Notes under the pieces: generated by a model
What the model saw: only the letters and a program-made list of their open reading frames with translations
Databases searched by the model: none
Told to the model about the DNA's origin: nothing
Program-made: the position numbers and the translations under genes
In this document: in pieces, positions 3 through 59,355 of the stretch
Position numbering within the stretch: position 1 is the stretch's first letter
How the letters are laid out: every line of letters starts with the position of its first letter
Assembly (NCBI GenBank): GCA_016290195.1
Contig: JAEETF010000016.1
Span: 12,879 to 76,878 of the forward strand
Direction of reading: 5' to 3'
Length of the DNA: 64,000 nucleotides
Source: Bacilli bacterium
Lineage (GTDB): Bacteria > Bacillota_I > Bacilli_A > RF39 > UBA660

Positions 3-305
3 ACTACGGATAGGTATTCATTTAAAATATTAGAAAATAAAGATATTGCTTTTGACCATCCAAGTGTTATATTATCTGGGATGGAAAGATTAAAAAATAA
101 ATTAGAATATACAGATATTGTTTTTAATATGATGCCAGAATTATTTACTTTAGGAGAGTTACAGCAAGTATATGAAGTAATACTTGGTAAAAAATTACTT
201 GATCCGGCTTTTAGAAGAATCATTGCTAATAAAGTAGAAAAAACAAAATTTATGAAAACTGGTGGAGGACATAGACCTAGTTATTTATTTAAATATAAGA
301 AATGA
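3..305 (+). CDS. 3' fragment of a gene truncated by the window start; possibly the winged-helix C-terminal domain of a Nudix-associated (NrtR-like) regulator
   Basis: Open reading frame runs from position 3 with no upstream stop in the window and ends TGA at 303-305. Assignment rests on weak recollection of NrtR C-termini. Confidence 0.3.
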   Translation, partial: TTDRYSFKILENKDIAFDHPSVILSGMERLKNKLEYTDIVFNMMPELFTLGELQQVYEVILGKKLLDPAFRRIIANKVEKTKFMKTGGGHRPSYLFKYKK

Positions 306-12553: not shown

Positions 12554-13588
12554 ATGAACATAAAACCTAGTTATTTAGTAAGAAATGAAATAAAAATTGA
12601 TAAGAGTAGTATGAAACTTCATTCACTATCGGATGCAATATTAGGTGAAAAAATAGATTCAAATATTCCTAATTTAGATAAATATGTTAATTTATATCAA
12701 AAAAATAGAAAAAAATTAGAAGATTCATTTGAACATTCATTAACTCTTACGATTGAAGAATTAAGATATTTAAGTAATTTGTATCCCAAAAAATTAAAGA
12801 AATTTAAAATATGGCTTTATATTCAAAAACCAGGAGAAATTGGATATGAAGAATTAAAAAAATTTAAAAATAACTTTAATATGTATGCAGTTGTTGTAAA
12901 TAATTTAATGACAAAGCATGGGAAATTTAAACCACATATGATTAATTATAATTTATATCTTGAATACTCTAAAAAATTATGGGATATTGTAAGTAATATT
13001 GATTATGAAGAATGCTATAATTCTAATAATCCGCAAATAAATGTTTTTTGTAAGCTTTTAAAAGAAATAGTTAATAATGTTCAAAGAGGAGATGCAGACG
13101 AAAGTTATACTGAAAAACTTAGTAAAAATTTACAAAAATTTGAAAGAATTCCAGATGAAATAATTGGCTTAGTAAGTGGCGAATGTGTATGTCGTGGGAT
13201 GAGTGGAATTATTAGAGATGCTTGTGCATTAATAGGTATTAAAACAAAAGTTATTAAGGGTGAAAGAGATATAGATGGTCATGCATGGAATCAAGTAAAA
13301 TTAAATGGTAATTGGTATAATGTTGATTTAACATGGGATCATGCAAATATTAAGAAAAATATGGCACCATATTTTATTTTGAAAAGTAATAAAGAATTTA
13401 ATAGAACACGTGTAATGGATGAATCTAATAATATATGTTGTCATGGCGATTATATTTATAAAAGAACACTAGAACATGAATGTAATGTTTCTATTCCAAA
13501 TGAAATGGTAGAGTATTATTTATATAATTCGAAAGCAAAAGATGTTAAAAATGAAGGAAGAATTAAAAAAATGTTATTACATTATTAG
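12554..13588 (+). CDS. transglutaminase-like cysteine protease-fold protein
   Basis: Cys-His-Asp core: 'GECVCRGMSG', 'DGHAWNQV', 'NVDLTWD'. Confidence 0.55.
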   Translation: MNIKPSYLVRNEIKIDKSSMKLHSLSDAILGEKIDSNIPNLDKYVNLYQKNRKKLEDSFEHSLTLTIEELRYLSNLYPKKLKKFKIWLYIQKPGEIGYEELKKFKNNFNMYAVVVNNLMTKHGKFKPHMINYNLYLEYSKKLWDIVSNIDYEECYNSNNPQINVFCKLLKEIVNNVQRGDADESYTEKLSKNLQKFERIPDEIIGLVSGECVCRGMSGIIRDACALIGIKTKVIKGERDIDGHAWNQVKLNGNWYNVDLTWDHANIKKNMAPYFILKSNKEFNRTRVMDESNNICCHGDYIYKRTLEHECNVSIPNEMVEYYLYNSKAKDVKNEGRIKKMLLHY

Positions 13589-15081: not shown

Positions 15082-15243
15082 CATTTTTGCTTTACAAAAT
15101 ATAGAAAAATACAAATTTGTGAAATTTTACTTAAAATTATAAATATTACTTTTTAAATTATAAAAGTAATAAAATTGCAAGATAATGTTATTTTTCGACA
15201 AAATTACTATTAATGTATATAAATGTAAATGAAAGGATTAAAA

Positions 15244-15576
15244 ATGAAAAAATATATGAAAGATTATATTAATAAAATAGATGAATTATTAAATAAAAAT
15301 GAAAAGATTAATAATGAAATTATATCAGAGCATTTAATTAAAATTAGTTTTTTTCAGCATGAAAGATTAATACATTTATTAGTAACACTTTTTTATGCAT
15401 TATTTGTCTTTATATTTTTAGCTTTTTCTATATGGATAACATATCAATTTTTAATAGTTGAATTAATACTATTAGTATTTTTAGGTTTTTATATTAAACA
15501 TTATTTCTTTTTAGAAAATGGTGTTCAATATATGTATAAACAATATGATAAAATGAAAAATAAGTTGACAAAATAA
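15244..15576 (+). CDS. hypothetical small two-TM membrane protein
   Basis: RBS 'gaaagga' before ATG 15244; two hydrophobic helices. Confidence 0.4.
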   Translation: MKKYMKDYINKIDELLNKNEKINNEIISEHLIKISFFQHERLIHLLVTLFYALFVFIFLAFSIWITYQFLIVELILLVFLGFYIKHYFFLENGVQYMYKQYDKMKNKLTK

Positions 15577-15715: not shown

Positions 15716-15746
15716 AGACTACATAATATATGTAGTCTTTTATTTT
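15716..15746 (+). terminator. intrinsic terminator or attenuator between the upstream ORF and the ABC exporter gene
   Basis: Stem 'agactacat'/'atgtagtct' with loop 'aatat', then 'tttatttt'; only ~10 nt before the exporter RBS. Confidence 0.5.
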
Positions 15747-15756
15747 GGGAGGTATT

Positions 15757-17487
15757 ATGAAAAATTTAAGAGAAATAAAACCTCTAATAAAATTTATTGA
15801 TGAAAAGGGAAAACTTATTTTTGCTAGTATTATGATTTTTTTATCAGGTATAGTAGGAATATGTTCTGGCTATTTAAATGGTGCTGCTATTGAATCTATA
15901 ACTAATATGGATGTTAAAATGGCATTAATATATTTATTAATTTATTTTATTTTAGAAATTACTTTTGATGGAGTATTTATTCAATGTGCAAATGCATCAT
16001 TATATAAAATTGAAAGTAAAATTACACGAAAATTAGGTTATGAAACATATAAAAAGACACTAGATTTACCATCTGAGGCATTTGAAGTACATACATCTGG
16101 TGAATTTATAAATCGTATCACTGGTGATGCTGATTGCTTAAGTTTTGCATTTGGTCGTCTTTTACATATGTTTTCTGAATTAATTGCGGCATTAATTATT
16201 ATTGTATATGTCTTTATTAATTCATGGATTATTGGATTAGAAATAATATGTTTCTTAATTATATTTTTTATAGTTATTAAGAAATATAATCCAGTTGTTG
16301 AAAAAATTCATAAAGATCGAAAAGCAGGACAAGATAAGTTTGCTTCTTTAACAAATGAATCAATTAGGGGTATAAGAGAAATAAAAACATTAGGTATTAA
16401 AAATAATGTCTTAAATGATATGAAAGAAATAATTAAGATTATTTTTGCTACTTCTAAAAAAGAAATAGATATTAATAATAAATTTAATATTATTACAAGA
16501 GTTCTTAGAACTATGTTAGAAGTAGGAACATTTATAATCTGTGTTATTTTACTTTATTATGGAAAAGTAACACTTACATTTTTTGTTGCTATGACATATT
16601 ATGTTTATAGATATATGTGGTTAATTGAAAATTTAAATGATTTAACAATTACATACCAAAAAACAATAGTATCTATTAAACGTGTTAATGAAATAGTATT
16701 AAATAAATTATATGAAGATGAAAAATTTGGTAATATAGAACTTACTAATAATAAAGGTATAATTGAATTTAAAAATGTTTCATTTTCATATCCTAATAAA
16801 GTTGAAACATTAAATAATTTTAATTTAAAATTAGAGCCACATAAAAAGATTGCGATTATTGGTAAATCTGGCCAAGGAAAATCAACATTATTTAATTTAC
16901 TTACTAGAATTTTTGATGTAAAATCTGGTGAAATATTATTAGATGGTGTTAATATTAAAGATTTAACTGAAAAAAATCTTCGAAATCAAATATCTATAAT
17001 AAGACAAGAACCTTTTGTATTTAACAGGTCCATAAAAGAAAATTTTGAAATTGTACGTAAAAACATAACTCTTGAAGAAATAAGAAAGTATTGTAAAGAT
17101 GCTTATATTGATGAATATATCATGAGTTTAGATGATAAGTATGATACTATTCTTGGAGAAGGTGGTATTAATTTATCTGGAGTTCAAAAACAAAGACTTG
17201 CTATTGCACGTACATTATCTAAAGGGGGAAAAGTAATTTTATTTGATGAAGCAACTAGTGCACTTGATAATGAATCACAAGAATATATTAAGAAGGCAAT
17301 AGATAAACTTGTAAAAAATCATACTGTAGTTATAATTGCTCATCGTTTATCAACAATTGAAGATGCCGATATTATTTATGTGATAGATAAAGGCCAAGTT
17401 GTATCATCAGGAACACATAATGAATTATTAAAAACAAGTAAAATTTATCAAAAACTTTATGAAAAAGAAGCTTTAAATTCGAAATAA
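15757..17487 (+). CDS. ABC exporter, fused transmembrane and ATP-binding domains (MsbA/BmrA-like half transporter)
   Basis: Walker A 'GKSGQGKST', signature 'LSGVQKQR', Walker B 'ILFDEATSALD', H-loop 'IAHRL'. RBS 'gggaggt'. Confidence 0.85.
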   Translation: MKNLREIKPLIKFIDEKGKLIFASIMIFLSGIVGICSGYLNGAAIESITNMDVKMALIYLLIYFILEITFDGVFIQCANASLYKIESKITRKLGYETYKKTLDLPSEAFEVHTSGEFINRITGDADCLSFAFGRLLHMFSELIAALIIIVYVFINSWIIGLEIICFLIIFFIVIKKYNPVVEKIHKDRKAGQDKFASLTNESIRGIREIKTLGIKNNVLNDMKEIIKIIFATSKKEIDINNKFNIITRVLRTMLEVGTFIICVILLYYGKVTLTFFVAMTYYVYRYMWLIENLNDLTITYQKTIVSIKRVNEIVLNKLYEDEKFGNIELTNNKGIIEFKNVSFSYPNKVETLNNFNLKLEPHKKIAIIGKSGQGKSTLFNLLTRIFDVKSGEILLDGVNIKDLTEKNLRNQISIIRQEPFVFNRSIKENFEIVRKNITLEEIRKYCKDAYIDEYIMSLDDKYDTILGEGGINLSGVQKQRLAIARTLSKGGKVILFDEATSALDNESQEYIKKAIDKLVKNHTVVIIAHRLSTIEDADIIYVIDKGQVVSSGTHNELLKTSKIYQKLYEKEALNSK

Positions 17488-17510
17488 AAAGATAAAATTA
17501 TCTTTTTATT
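17487..17510 (+). terminator. intrinsic terminator after the ABC gene
   Basis: 'aaagataaaattatcttttt'. Confidence 0.5.
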
Positions 17511-17606
17511 TTTTTACTTTTAATGTAAAGTATAATGTAAAATAATTTAAAAAATATATGATAATAATAATAATAATGATATAATGACCATAGAGTAGGT
17601 GAACTT

Positions 17607-18764
17607 ATGCTTAAACGATATAAGAAAAGCTATTTAGTTATAAATATAATCCTTATATTATTGCTTATTTTTACTTGCATAAATCTTTGGGCTTTAAAAA
17701 ATACTGGTTATTGGTTTTTAATTGCAACAATTGCAATACCAACAGCCATATTAATAGGAATATATGGCTATGAGGGTAAAAGTCGAAGGTTTAAATATGA
17801 ATTATCATTTTATGTATTCATATATACAATAGGTTTTTTGATAATGACATATTCACTTGGATTAATATTTGGATTTACTGGTAATGTTTATAAGCTTAAT
17901 TTAACCAATTTAGTTAATAACATTATTCCTTATGTGATGTTAATTCTTGTAACTGAAGTATTGCGATACGAGATTATTCGTAAAGGTGATGGTTCGACAT
18001 TAGCATACATATTAATTGTAATTATTTTAACAAATATTGATTTGAGTTTATTTCGTGATACATATGACTTATCTAATGGCGATGGTCAAATAAAATATAT
18101 TTGTGTTATTGCCATTCCTAGTTTATTTAAAAATGTAATATTGATGTATTATACTAAACTTGGTGGAGTATATCCTAGTTTAATATATAGGTTTCTGTTA
18201 GATTTAAAATTAGTAATTGTACCAATATTTCCAAATTTTGGCCTATATTTTGAATGTATTATTAATACTGCTTTACCAGTATTAATGATGTTTCTAATTC
18301 ATTTTAATTTGAAGAAATTTGAAGATGAAAATGAGAATATTAATATAAAAGAATCAAAAAAATATAAACTAGTTGTGATTATTATTATGCTTTCTATTGT
18401 TATTTTTGTTAATATTTTAGTAAGTTGTACACTCAAATATGGAATGATTGCCATTGGATCTAATAGTATGGTTCCAGAATTTGCTAGAGGAGATGCAATT
18501 ATATATGAAAAAGTTAATGCTAGTACTAATTTAGAAATAGGACAAATAATAATATTCAAAAAGGATAATAAAACAGTTGTTCACAGATTAATACAAATAG
18601 TGGACGTGGGTAATAACGAATATATTTATTATACTAAGGGAGATGCAAATGATAATCCCGATGGTTATCCAATTGAAAGAAAAAATATTATAGGAGTTTG
18701 TAAATTTAAAATTAAATATATAGGGTTTCCATCAGTAGTTTTAGGAGAACTTATACATAGATAG
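17607..18764 (+). CDS. fusion of a ~250-aa polytopic membrane domain of unknown family to a C-terminal SipW-type (ER/archaeal-type) signal peptidase I domain
   Basis: C-terminal TM anchor then 'GSNSMVPEF' (catalytic Ser), 'TVVHRLIQI' (His), 'KGDANDNPD'. N-terminal part has ~7 hydrophobic helices. RBS 'aggtga'. Confidence 0.7.
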   Translation: MLKRYKKSYLVINIILILLLIFTCINLWALKNTGYWFLIATIAIPTAILIGIYGYEGKSRRFKYELSFYVFIYTIGFLIMTYSLGLIFGFTGNVYKLNLTNLVNNIIPYVMLILVTEVLRYEIIRKGDGSTLAYILIVIILTNIDLSLFRDTYDLSNGDGQIKYICVIAIPSLFKNVILMYYTKLGGVYPSLIYRFLLDLKLVIVPIFPNFGLYFECIINTALPVLMMFLIHFNLKKFEDENENINIKESKKYKLVVIIIMLSIVIFVNILVSCTLKYGMIAIGSNSMVPEFARGDAIIYEKVNASTNLEIGQIIIFKKDNKTVVHRLIQIVDVGNNEYIYYTKGDANDNPDGYPIERKNIIGVCKFKIKYIGFPSVVLGELIHR

Positions 18765-19799: not shown

Positions 19800-19884
19800 T
19801 TTACACTATTTTACTATATGAATAAAAAAAATCTTGCTAATATAAATATTTTATGTATAATTAAAATAGAGAGGAGTTTAATAA

Positions 19885-20466
19885 ATGAAAAATAATACTA
19901 AATTTTTATATGGAATTGTTGCCGTTGCATTTTTATTATCTGTAATAGGTATTTCTGTCGGATTTGCATCTATGTCATCTAGTTTAGATGTTAAAGGACA
20001 AGCTGAGGTTGTACCTGCAAGCTGGAAAATTAAATTTAAAGATTTAAGTTCTGCAACTATTAATGGTAGTGCTACAGTTGTAACAGCACCACAAATTGAA
20101 TCTGATACTCATATTGGTGATTATGATGTAACATTATCAATGCCAGGAGATTCAGTTGTTTATACTTTTAAAGTTGCTAATAATGGAACTATCGATGCAG
20201 AATTAAGTGATTATACATTTGCTACACCAACAATTACTGGTACTGGTGATACAGCTGCTGCAGATGCTGCTATTGTTTCAAGTAATTTAGTTTATACTTT
20301 AACTTATGCTGATGGTACAGCTATTCAAAAAAATGATGAGTTATTAAAAAATACTGAAAAAACTTTAAAATTAACAGTAGCATATGATGCTAATGCAACA
20401 GAATTACCTACAAGTCAAGTAGATATCTCTGATATGGATATTACATTTACTTATTCTCAAAAATAA
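19885..20466 (+). CDS. secreted TasA/CalY/camelysin-family (Peptidase_M73-like) protein with a SipW-cognate-type signal peptide
   Basis: Signal 'FLYGIVAVAFLLSVIGISVGFASMSS'. 'LSMPGDSVVYTFKVANNGTIDAEL' resembles the TasA/CalY 'LKPGDS..KEF.L.N.GSL.IK' block. Beta-rich and Thr/Ala-rich. Confidence 0.6.
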   Translation: MKNNTKFLYGIVAVAFLLSVIGISVGFASMSSSLDVKGQAEVVPASWKIKFKDLSSATINGSATVVTAPQIESDTHIGDYDVTLSMPGDSVVYTFKVANNGTIDAELSDYTFATPTITGTGDTAAADAAIVSSNLVYTLTYADGTAIQKNDELLKNTEKTLKLTVAYDANATELPTSQVDISDMDITFTYSQK

Positions 20467-20486
20467 AAAAGTGTATTCTTAGTGAG

Positions 20487-20515
20487 ATAAGGCTAGTTTT
20501 ACTAGTCTTTTTATT
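20487..20515 (+). terminator. intrinsic terminator
   Basis: 'ggctagttttactagtc' plus 'ttttta'. Confidence 0.4.
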
Positions 20516-20574
20516 TTATTGAAATTTTAAATAAAAAATGTATAATATATATAAGTTATGAAGGGAGAGATTAT

Positions 20575-20970
20575 ATGAAAAGAAAGGGTTTAAAAGTACT
20601 TAATGGAGTTAAGTGGCTATATGTTATTGGTGCTATATTAGCTGTTATTTTTGCGGTTGTAGTTGGCTGTTTAGATAAAATACCAGATGAACTTTTATCA
20701 ATAGTTCCAAAAGATACAAAAATGGATGCCAAGACATTTTTAGTAGCATATTTTGCATGTAATGCAGCTATTGAAGTTTGGTTCTTTTGGTTATTAAATA
20801 GATTTATTAATGGTAAAAGTAATGGTACATTTTATATATTCTTATTAATACTTAGTTTAATTGGAAGTATAGTAACTCTATTTTCATCTACATCTATTTC
20901 TACTATAAATATTATATTAGATGTAATAGTATTATATTTTGCAATATTAGCTCGAAAAGATACAAAATAA
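20575..20970 (+). CDS. hypothetical small membrane protein
   Basis: RBS 'gaagggagag'; three or four TM helices. Confidence 0.4.
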   Translation: MKRKGLKVLNGVKWLYVIGAILAVIFAVVVGCLDKIPDELLSIVPKDTKMDAKTFLVAYFACNAAIEVWFFWLLNRFINGKSNGTFYIFLLILSLIGSIVTLFSSTSISTINIILDVIVLYFAILARKDTK

Positions 20971-20991
20971 AATAGGAAAATTCCTATTTTT

Positions 20992-58665: not shown

Positions 58666-59355
58666 TTAATGCAGTAAAAGCGACATAATTACTAAAATAG
58701 TATTATGAAACGCATGAAATAAAATTGGTACAAAAATATTTTCTTCTTTAACATACATCAGTGCAAACATACTTCCTACAGCCCCATAAGGAATTATATA
58801 TAAAAGTTCTGTTGGACTAGTAGCGTTAGCGAGTGTATGAATATAACCAAATAATAATCCACTCATAATGATGAAAACAATATTAGTTGGGAAAACATTT
58901 CTTAAAGTTTTACGAAACAATATTTCTTCAATGAATGGTGCAAAGATACAAGCACTATAAATCATATATAGGGGAGCTTTATGTAACTCTTCCTGGACAA
59001 TTTGTTCATTAACAGCGGCACCTCTATTGATCATAATTGATATAAATATATTAGAAAACATCATAACTATCAAGCCTATTAAGTAATATCTAATGTTCCT
59101 ATTTATAAGACTAAGGCCCTTATCTTTAAATTCCTTTAGCTCTTTTTTTAAACTTTTACGATAGATAATAATAATTATTATCATATATAAGATGCCGGAA
59201 AATACTGTTAATAAGTGTTTAGTACTATCAGGTAAATTATTCATATCTAAGTTAAAGATTAATATTGGTATAAATGCAAATATAGTGTATATCAAGTAAC
59301 TGCCAATAAGTAAAAAATTTTTTAAAACATCTATGAACTTTTTAATAATAATCAC
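58666..59355 (-). CDS. CPBP-family intramembrane metalloprotease (CAAX protease/Abi-like)
   Basis: 'EEILFRK', 'FGYIH', 'HAFHN' motifs. GTG start. Confidence 0.75.
   Translation of the reverse strand: MIIIKKFIDVLKNFLLIGSYLIYTIFAFIPILIFNLDMNNLPDSTKHLLTVFSGILYMIIIIIIYRKSLKKELKEFKDKGLSLINRNIRYYLIGLIVMMFSNIFISIMINRGAAVNEQIVQEELHKAPLYMIYSACIFAPFIEEILFRKTLRNVFPTNIVFIIMSGLLFGYIHTLANATSPTELLYIIPYGAVGSMFALMYVKEENIFVPILFHAFHNTILVIMSLLLH

Follow-up and report, generated by a model that had tools for sequence, protein, structure and literature searches.

The TasA, AbpA, AbpX and Tafi fibres constitute an emerging cross-domain family of biofilm matrix polymers. In Bacillus subtilis, SipW processes its TasA-like substrate without an eight-transmembrane (8-TM) domain; it is a dedicated signal peptidase I (SPase I) of the endoplasmic reticulum (ER)/archaeal Ser-His type, about 190 amino acids (aa) long, and its substrate is encoded in the same operon (tapA-sipW-tasA). 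Here, we analyse a gene of a Bacilli bacterium, located in a stretch of 64,000 nucleotides (nt; positions 12,879 to 76,878 of contig JAEETF010000016.1, assembly GCA_016290195.1; hereafter the window), in which an SPase I of the same type is fused, within a single open reading frame (ORF), to an N-terminal domain of eight predicted TM helices (hereafter N-domain). The gene most likely encodes a peptidase dedicated to processing the subunits of an AbpX-like fibre module of the donor-strand type, and touches upon the question of how the Sec machinery hands fibre subunits over to the growing fibre. While it shares with SipW the SM, VHR and GDxN motifs and a (probable) substrate encoded alongside, it differs from it by the N-domain, by the partner (DUF5305 instead of TapA) and by the type of substrate (AbpX-like instead of TasA-like).

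The most similar architecture has been mentioned once in the literature. Sleutel et al. reported that AbpX, a member of the TasA superfamily that also has Bacillota homologues (mature protein of 163 aa, isoelectric point (pI) ~4, ~15% acidic residues), forms Ca-dependent fibrils held together by donor-strand complementation, and noted in one sentence of their January 2026 preprint that the SPase I associated with it carries ten TM helices (bioRxiv 10.64898/2026.01.04.697558). Such 'ten-TM' peptidases were reported at abpX loci of both bacteria and archaea (e.g., A0A1M6GRN4 of C. amylolyticum and A0A2R7Y7S8 of Z. tikiterensis; also WP_338249487.1 of P. abyssi), and the same preprint, which offers neither fold, motif nor function for the extra helices, proposed DUF5305 proteins (sometimes fused to the SPase I) as accessory subunits of the peptidase and drew the analogy with the signal peptidase complex (SPC). 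The window peptidase resembles them in being of the TIGR02228 type, in its many extra TM helices, in its position beside AbpX-like and DUF5305 genes and in its occurrence in Bacillota. Beyond this preprint, our literature search found no paper linking SipW-type peptidases with extra TM helices, and the N-domain is absent from Pfam and NCBIfam. Dedicated SPase I genes were also found to adjoin abpX in the work on cannulae (PMC12518558). In Haloarcula, TafD is required for the processing of TafA, and tafD shares the taf cluster with the DUF5305 gene tafG, the two occurring in some haloarchaea as duplicated adjacent pairs (PMC11821415). Although these Tat-fimbriae also bring together an SPase I, a DUF5305 protein and donor-strand subunits in one cluster, TafD departs from the window peptidase by its four TM helices, its additional C-terminal domain, its Tat-pathway substrates and the lack of an 8-TM N-domain (PMC11821415).

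The fusion protein (385 aa, ATG-initiated; Table 1) is preceded, 7-8 nt 5' of its start codon, by a Shine-Dalgarno-like AGGTGA. Its C-terminal part matched TIGR02228 (archaeal/ER-type signal peptidase I, MEROPS S26B) with 88.9 bits over residues 255-379 (curated cut-off 51.85), and the SipW equivalog model NF046067 with 58 bits, below the cut-off of 190; judged by these scores, the peptidase is SipW-like, not a SipW orthologue. A phmmer search against PDB sequences recovered human SEC11C (E = 4e-10) and SEC11A (E = 2e-9), aligned in register across the active site (SGSM/NSM, VHR/VHR, TKGDNN/TKGDAN), and Foldseek of the full-length AlphaFold model again ranked SEC11C and SEC11A chains best (E ~3e-5; 7p2q_A, E = 2.7e-5), followed by streptococcal SipA and bacterial SPases, so that SEC11 (7P2P/7P2Q) is the best match of the catalytic domain in both sequence and structure. 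A first-pass annotation of this DNA had proposed a SipW/ER-type Ser-His peptidase fused to a polytopic domain of about 250 aa and of unknown family, a core claim that holds. The motifs it quoted are all present: GSNSMVPEF, with the nucleophile S287 in S-M; VVHRLIQI, in which the general base is a His (H326, in V-H-R) and not a Lys; and GDAND, part of GDANDNPD (D346 and D352). Its reservation that the catalytic residues might not withstand proper alignment was dispelled by their retention among 149 homologues (S287 and H326 in 148 each, D346 in 147, D352 in all).

The anchor of the peptidase (TM9) forms the top hydropathy peak of the protein (3.11), is modelled as a helix at residues 251-273 of the full-length protein and aligns with the TM helix of SEC11, while the hydrophobic stretch at the C-terminus (374-384) has too few residues for a further TM helix. 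Nine TM helices together with the positive-inside pattern place residues 274-385 outside the cell, and we take the C-terminal domain to be, by sequence and predicted topology, an intact, outward-facing ER/archaeal-type Ser-His-Asp SPase I. In the SPC, non-catalytic membrane subunits surround the catalytic SEC11. Unlike in that complex, the accessory helices are here fused in cis, adopt (in the model) an Rce1-like fold and show no homology to SPCS1, SPCS2 or SPCS3.

Hydropathy and models agree on eight TM helices in the N-domain, nine with the anchor; the 'seven or so' of the first-pass annotation was right about the polytopic nature and short in the count. Lys and Arg residues cluster at positions 1-8, in the loops 54-62 and 120-130 and in the linker 235-254, a pattern that argues for an N-in/C-in bundle with the peptidase domain outside, and the AlphaFold2 (AF2) model of the domain alone (built from 150 sequences) reached a predicted local distance difference test score (pLDDT) of 95.7 and a predicted template modelling score (pTM) of 0.91. 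No Pfam or NCBIfam model matched residues 1-250, nothing recurred in the N-domain when 18 diverse members were scanned singly against both collections at E <= 10, and the family profile found zero matches among PDB sequences at the same threshold. Within the 150-sequence alignment E117 and R120 are invariant (150/150 each); G85, G89, F90, P206 and P209 are nearly so (G85, G89, P206 and P209 in 144-148), and conservation is strong at Y82, N105, P171, K175, N176, Y194, R195, Y214 and P224. The unknown family stated in the first-pass annotation stands, and fold-level neighbours of the model (Rce1 and APH-1, described below) can be added; its suspicion of an ordinary extended SPase anchor is likewise countered by the invariant pair and the confident model. 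The N-domain is a real, constrained domain that belongs to no described family.

Catalytic-type columns were sought in the same alignment, in which His does not exceed 7%, Cys 31% and Ser 57% at any position of the N-domain. Exosortase/archaeosortase chemistry was ruled out on the lack of a conserved Cys or His and of a Pfam/NCBIfam match, and a rhomboid Ser-His dyad on the Ser and His frequencies; no rhomboid structure was present among the top 50 Foldseek matches listed for the N-domain. The comparisons with exosortases and rhomboids made by the first-pass annotation are analogies of logic alone.

The fusion is, as far as sequence databases reveal, obligate and widespread. A word-indexed search retrieved 245 relatives, about 100 of which are complete (384-391 aa), the most distant at 28% identity, and an exhaustive hidden Markov model (HMM) search with the N-domain only retrieved 1527 representatives of 50%-identity clusters, of which the best 150 matches were nearly all 360-391 aa long, i.e. 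of fused architecture. This family of more than 1500 clusters is devoid of a Pfam/NCBIfam model for its N-domain, an annotation gap that the present description addresses. When a single genome of every GTDB species was scanned (from an 11-sequence alignment), tblastn confirmed relatives in 338 stretches, mostly from metagenome-assembled genomes (MAGs) of Bacilli, Erysipelotrichaceae, Mycoplasmatota and Clostridia recovered from guts and rumens; the fusion was thereby traced to other genomes, as the first-pass annotation had proposed. Its other concern, that the ORF results from an erroneous (sequencing or assembly) join of a membrane protein gene and a normal SipW, is practically negligible as an explanation. 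Nothing was found in its favour other than a few relatives of 230-275 aa, and these look truncated or frameshifted, ending in aberrant, out-of-frame-looking tails or at contig ends. Against it stand over 100 complete homologues of the same length and frame, obtained independently in different assemblies, and the single ORF present in 80 GTDB species genomes; moreover, an even number of helices in the N-domain is needed for, and consistent with, a peptidase domain that faces outwards. The artefact is refuted by the conservation of the fused architecture.

Locus counts refer hereafter to the best 80 of the 338 stretches, or to 81 loci where the window is included. Almost all of these 80 derive from uncultured rumen/gut MAGs labelled as Erysipelotrichaceae, Bacilli, Mycoplasmatota/Tenericutes, Clostridia or Oscillospiraceae, and a few as Saccharibacteria or Muribaculaceae. 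On the Saccharibacteria-binned contigs (L013, L032, L038 and L053) the fibre subunits of the cassette described below have, ahead of their hydrophobic segment, a long N-terminal extension rich in Lys, Thr and Arg, and because of this distinctive feature these cassettes may represent a genuine separate lineage. Those on Bacteroidota-binned contigs (Muribaculaceae: L012, L022 and L067; Bacteroidaceae: L027) may reflect mis-binning or horizontal transfer. In one relative (P0139, 812 aa) the N-domain and the beginning of the peptidase domain run into a metallophosphoesterase/5'-nucleotidase-like region of ~500 aa, so that the protein is a chimera of the assembly or else a fusion of another kind.

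The gene neighbourhoods were compared by tblastn with the window neighbours and by all-against-all clustering of the ORFs of the 81 loci. Only three families recur: the fusion itself (81/81), an AbpX-like family (80/81; 147 proteins) and a DUF5305 family (78/81). The DUF5305 gene lies directly 3' of the fusion in 74 of the 80 related loci. Its product in the window (PF17231, 6.7e-15) is laid out as an N-terminal TM helix, an extracellular domain, a second TM helix (~226-250) and a cytoplasmic tail. The union of a peptidase and a conserved eight-helix module in one protein, with DUF5305 as its regular partner, points to a signal peptidase complex of several components in prokaryotes.

The third family supplies the probable substrates of the peptidase, which we identify by genomic context and sequence profile as AbpX/TasA-like fibre subunits; poorly known gut bacteria (Bacillota/Mycoplasmatota-like) would accordingly be suggested to make AbpX-like fibres. 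Their N-termini share a basic n-region, 17-22 hydrophobic residues and the motif [IV]-G-[FY]-A-[AS]-h-[ST]-x-x-L-x-[IV]-x-G (h, hydrophobic), kept in 60 of the 80 loci in a motif scan. Its carriers are either small proteins (160-250 aa), often in two or three tandem copies, or large ones (350-1280 aa) encoded after DUF5305. The profile of 26 small members had AbpX as its best match in the PDB (9sj2_C, E = 0.0068, 19.7 bits), followed by 9rhp_A ('Archaeal bundling protein X'), both being cryo-EM/crystal chains; the alignment spans nearly the whole protein and starts at residue 3 of the 163-aa chain 9sj2_C. By the -3/-1 rule of SPase I, to which G at -3 and A at -1 conform, and by the start of the AbpX alignment near the mature N-terminus, the cut is predicted to fall after G-[FY]-A, directly ahead of A/S-h-S/T-x-x-L-x-I/V-x-G, a segment of amphipathic donor-strand type. 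The window subunit would thereby mature to 165 aa with a pI of 4.17 and 13.3% Asp+Glu, values near those published for AbpX and its homologues. Its predicted mature start is S-M-S-S-S-L-D-V, rather than the aromatic position 2 and acidic position 4 that mark AbpX; across the subunits at large, position 2 is occupied by L, F, I, Y, V or M, and T, S or N predominate at positions 4-5. A single-sequence PDB search with the 193-aa protein returned noise only, and the TasA/SipW-cognate NCBIfam models had no match among the 26 subunits.

In the five closest loci, the 194-aa subunit is immediately followed by a second, large protein (647-851 aa) with the motif G-F-S/A-A-L-S, presumably a tip or adhesin subunit; the window contains neither such a gene nor a remnant of it at positions 20467-20990. 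Elsewhere, small AbpX-like paralogues are encoded in tandem, two or three in a row, upstream of the peptidase (Table 1), which suggests major and minor fibre components, or subunit variation.

In the search for fold relatives of the N-domain, Foldseek of its model against the PDB placed Rce1 of Methanococcus maripaludis at ranks 1 and 4 (4cad_L and 4cad_I; TM-score 0.50/0.49 over 268 columns; probability 0.95 and 0.72; E = 0.3 and 1.1), with a match that is colinear across all eight helices, and APH-1B of gamma-secretase at rank 5 (8oqy_C, TM-score 0.34/0.35), all other matches having TM-scores <= 0.30. When the full-length model was used, 4cad_L was the sole membrane-protein match among the top 50 listed. 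Pei et al. (2011) reportedly placed Rce1 and APH-1 in one CPBP-like fold group; since two members of this group head the list, the models support a fold-level relationship, though the E-values are non-significant. The N-domain shares with Rce1/CPBP proteases (4CAD) the eight-TM bundle and a conserved Glu and Arg on TM4, and differs from them in motif: instead of EExxxR it has E117-x-x-R120, with one Glu and another spacing, and FxxxH and HxxxN/D (CPBP motifs 2 and 3) are missing, His being so rare in every column that the canonical CPBP mechanism must be absent. PF02517 had no match at E <= 10 in 18 fusion members. A bona fide CPBP/Abi protease encoded in the window (invariant E143, E144, F147 and R148, with further motifs F169 H173 and H214 H217 N218) served as control family, and its profile also misses Rce1 in the PDB by HMMER, which indicates that sequence tests have low power at such distance and are uninformative here.

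We reason that the best explanation, which we hold with slightly better than even confidence, is an active, dedicated SPase I of an AbpX-like fibre cassette in which the N-domain acts as a docking/scaffold module. Subunits would be exported with the conserved signal-anchor, the S287/H326 site on the outer face would cut after G-[FY]-A and free the N-terminal donor strand, and the released subunits would join through donor-strand complementation to build a fibre or matrix outside the cell. The N-domain would be a non-catalytic, histidine-less Rce1/APH-1-like bundle, whose even number of helices positions the anchor helix and keeps the catalytic domain outside. It would offer an intramembrane groove and, near the cytoplasmic leaflet, a polar pocket (E117/R120 with N176, K175, Y194 and R195) to the signal-anchor of the substrate and/or the two TM helices of DUF5305, the E117/R120 pocket being located at the level expected for the basic n-region of the substrate. 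The outcome would be a bacterial counterpart of the multi-subunit signal peptidase complex, with substrate specificity conferred by its membrane part; a fusion that couples substrate recognition to cleavage (one of the options raised by the first-pass annotation, next to translocation) is plausible and is the reading we prefer. APH-1 and SpdC/LyrA of Staphylococcus aureus offer a parallel, as CPBP-fold proteins that have lost the protease chemistry and scaffold another membrane protease or signalling protein. APH-1 retains two histidines and has no Glu; the N-domain presents the opposite, keeping the Glu/Arg and lacking the histidines. If the fold link is true, it would add another CPBP-fold pseudo-protease serving as scaffold for a different protease, parallel to APH-1 in gamma-secretase.

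Several observations weigh against this explanation. The E-value of the Rce1 match (0.3) is non-significant and its TM-score of 0.50 borderline for the same fold, while hhalign of the N-domain against the CPBP family built from the window's own gene gave a probability of 5%. With 19.7 bits, the similarity to AbpX is marginal; the acidic residue at mature position 4, stressed in the preprint for Ca-dependent assembly, is a Ser in the window protein. The published SPase I has ten TM helices against nine here, the two N-domains being compared by description only. Contact of the N-domain with the substrate or with DUF5305 is something we infer, and an invariant Glu-Arg pair within the membrane could equally mean catalysis or ion/lipid binding.

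Were it catalysis, the N-domain could be an active, divergent Rce1/CPBP-like glutamate protease and the fusion a two-protease machine, in which the outer Ser-His site frees the subunit and a Glu at the inner leaflet degrades or clips the retained signal-anchor, in the manner of a signal-peptide peptidase, or makes a second maturation cut. Rce1/CPBP enzymes carry their catalytic EExxxR motif on TM4, the helix on which the N-domain has its sole invariant residues, one Glu and one Arg; by the predicted topology the Glu occupies the cytoplasmic membrane half, as it does in Rce1, and the best PDB fold match of the bundle, a colinear one, is Rce1 itself. We nevertheless regard such an enzyme as quite unlikely, for CPBP motifs 2 and 3 are represented by neither their two histidines nor their Asn/Asp, the ExxR pair has one Glu, neither PF02517 nor hhalign lends support, and no invariant Cys, Ser or second acid is available; given the absence of the CPBP catalytic histidines, the N-domain is most likely not a protease. 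The lack of a recognisable active-site constellation would suit a passive extended anchor, or an oligomerisation/localisation module (e.g., one that targets the peptidase to the site of fibre assembly), that makes no specific contact with the substrate. This is compatible with the lower confidence of TM9, which connects the N-domain with the peptidase domain (pLDDT ~72-76 in the full-length model), and with the fact that ordinary SipW, as well as TafD (PMC11821415), process TasA-like substrates in the absence of such a domain. However, a fusion that is obligate across 1527 clusters, and a constraint on E117/R120 and on G85, G89, P206 and P209 that approximates that on the catalytic residues, exceed what an anchor needs, and the unusually conserved signal-anchor/cleavage motif of the substrates suggests specific recognition; we thus consider the passive role unlikely. 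A further, rather improbable reading makes the N-domain a new intramembrane device around the TM4 Glu-Arg pair, either a glutamate protease that works without histidines and removes the signal-anchor or cuts it again, or, together with DUF5305, a mechanical coupling of cleavage to donor-strand insertion. If the coupling version were true, fibre polymerisation would be templated at the membrane, by an 'usher-less' assembly platform. Residues E117, R120, S287 and H326 are available for mutation.

Table 1. Coordinates of the cassette, its surroundings and comparable genes (window positions, unless a related locus is named)
Feature	Position	Strand	Remarks
115-aa membrane ORF	15229..15576	+	upstream of cassette
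MsbA/HlyB-like ABC exporter	15745..17487	+	just upstream of cassette
AT-rich hairpin plus T-run	~17487-17520		after the stop of the ABC exporter gene
Promoter-like site ATGATA-16-TATAAT, TG extension	17558..17585	+	5' of fusion gene; consensus match
Fusion ORF	17607..18764	+	8-TM N-domain, anchor TM, ER/archaeal-type SPase I domain; stop ends at 18764
N-domain, aa 1-244	17607..18338	+	eight predicted TM helices, N-in/C-in; Rce1/APH-1-like fold in models
TM helices of N-domain	aa 7-30, 35-53, 63-88, 99-126, 131-148, 158-186, 189-204, 213-243		hydropathy and models
E117-V-L-R120 codons	17955..17966	+	only invariant residues of N-domain; cytoplasmic half of TM4
TM9, anchor of the peptidase, aa 255-273	18369..18425	+	after charged cytoplasmic linker, aa 235-254
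Catalytic domain, aa 274-385	18426..18764	+	predicted extracytoplasmic; TIGR02228, SEC11C/A alignment, fold
Catalytic codons	S287 18465-18467; H326 18582-18584; D346 18642-18644; D352 18660-18662	+	
DUF5305 protein, 341 aa	18774..19799	+	starts 9 nt past fusion stop; putative peptidase accessory subunit
Promoter-like site TTGCTA-16-TATAAT	19834..19861	+	between the DUF5305 and AbpX-like genes, 85 nt apart
AbpX-like (TasA-superfamily) fibre subunit precursor, 193 aa	19885..20466	+	family profile, N-terminal motif
Predicted signal peptide, aa 1-28	19885..19968	+	cut between VGFA and SMSS
Terminator-like hairpin plus T-run	20489..20509	+	closes the three-gene unit; 2 such sites against 0.5 expected
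Unique 131-aa membrane ORF	20575..20970		next gene: ZIP transporter, opposite strand
CPBP/Abi protease gene (bona fide)	58666..59355	-	PF02517 in all homologues; EEILFR, FGYIH, HAFHN; control family
Large second protein in related loci	L001:9014-11062; L002:7410-9353; L003:9017-10966; L004:9055-11175; L005:4600-7155		
Tandem small AbpX-like subunits in related loci	L020:3923-5689; L022:3879-5875; L049:4490-5689; L048:4758-5809		upstream of peptidase

The window is very AT-rich (GC content of 21-32%) and coding lies almost wholly on the + strand. The ABC exporter encoded upstream was rejected as a member of the cassette, its homologues being present in 10-14 loci only and at varying positions, and the 115-aa and 131-aa membrane ORFs that flank the cassette have no homologues in the related loci; the adjacency of the exporter and of the 115-aa ORF is probably coincidental. 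Promoter-like matches are as frequent in this AT-rich window as expected from shuffled sequence, which makes the site 5' of the fusion gene weak evidence for a promoter. The site in the gap after the DUF5305 gene, likewise a consensus match in AT-rich DNA, could give the AbpX-like gene its own, stronger transcription.

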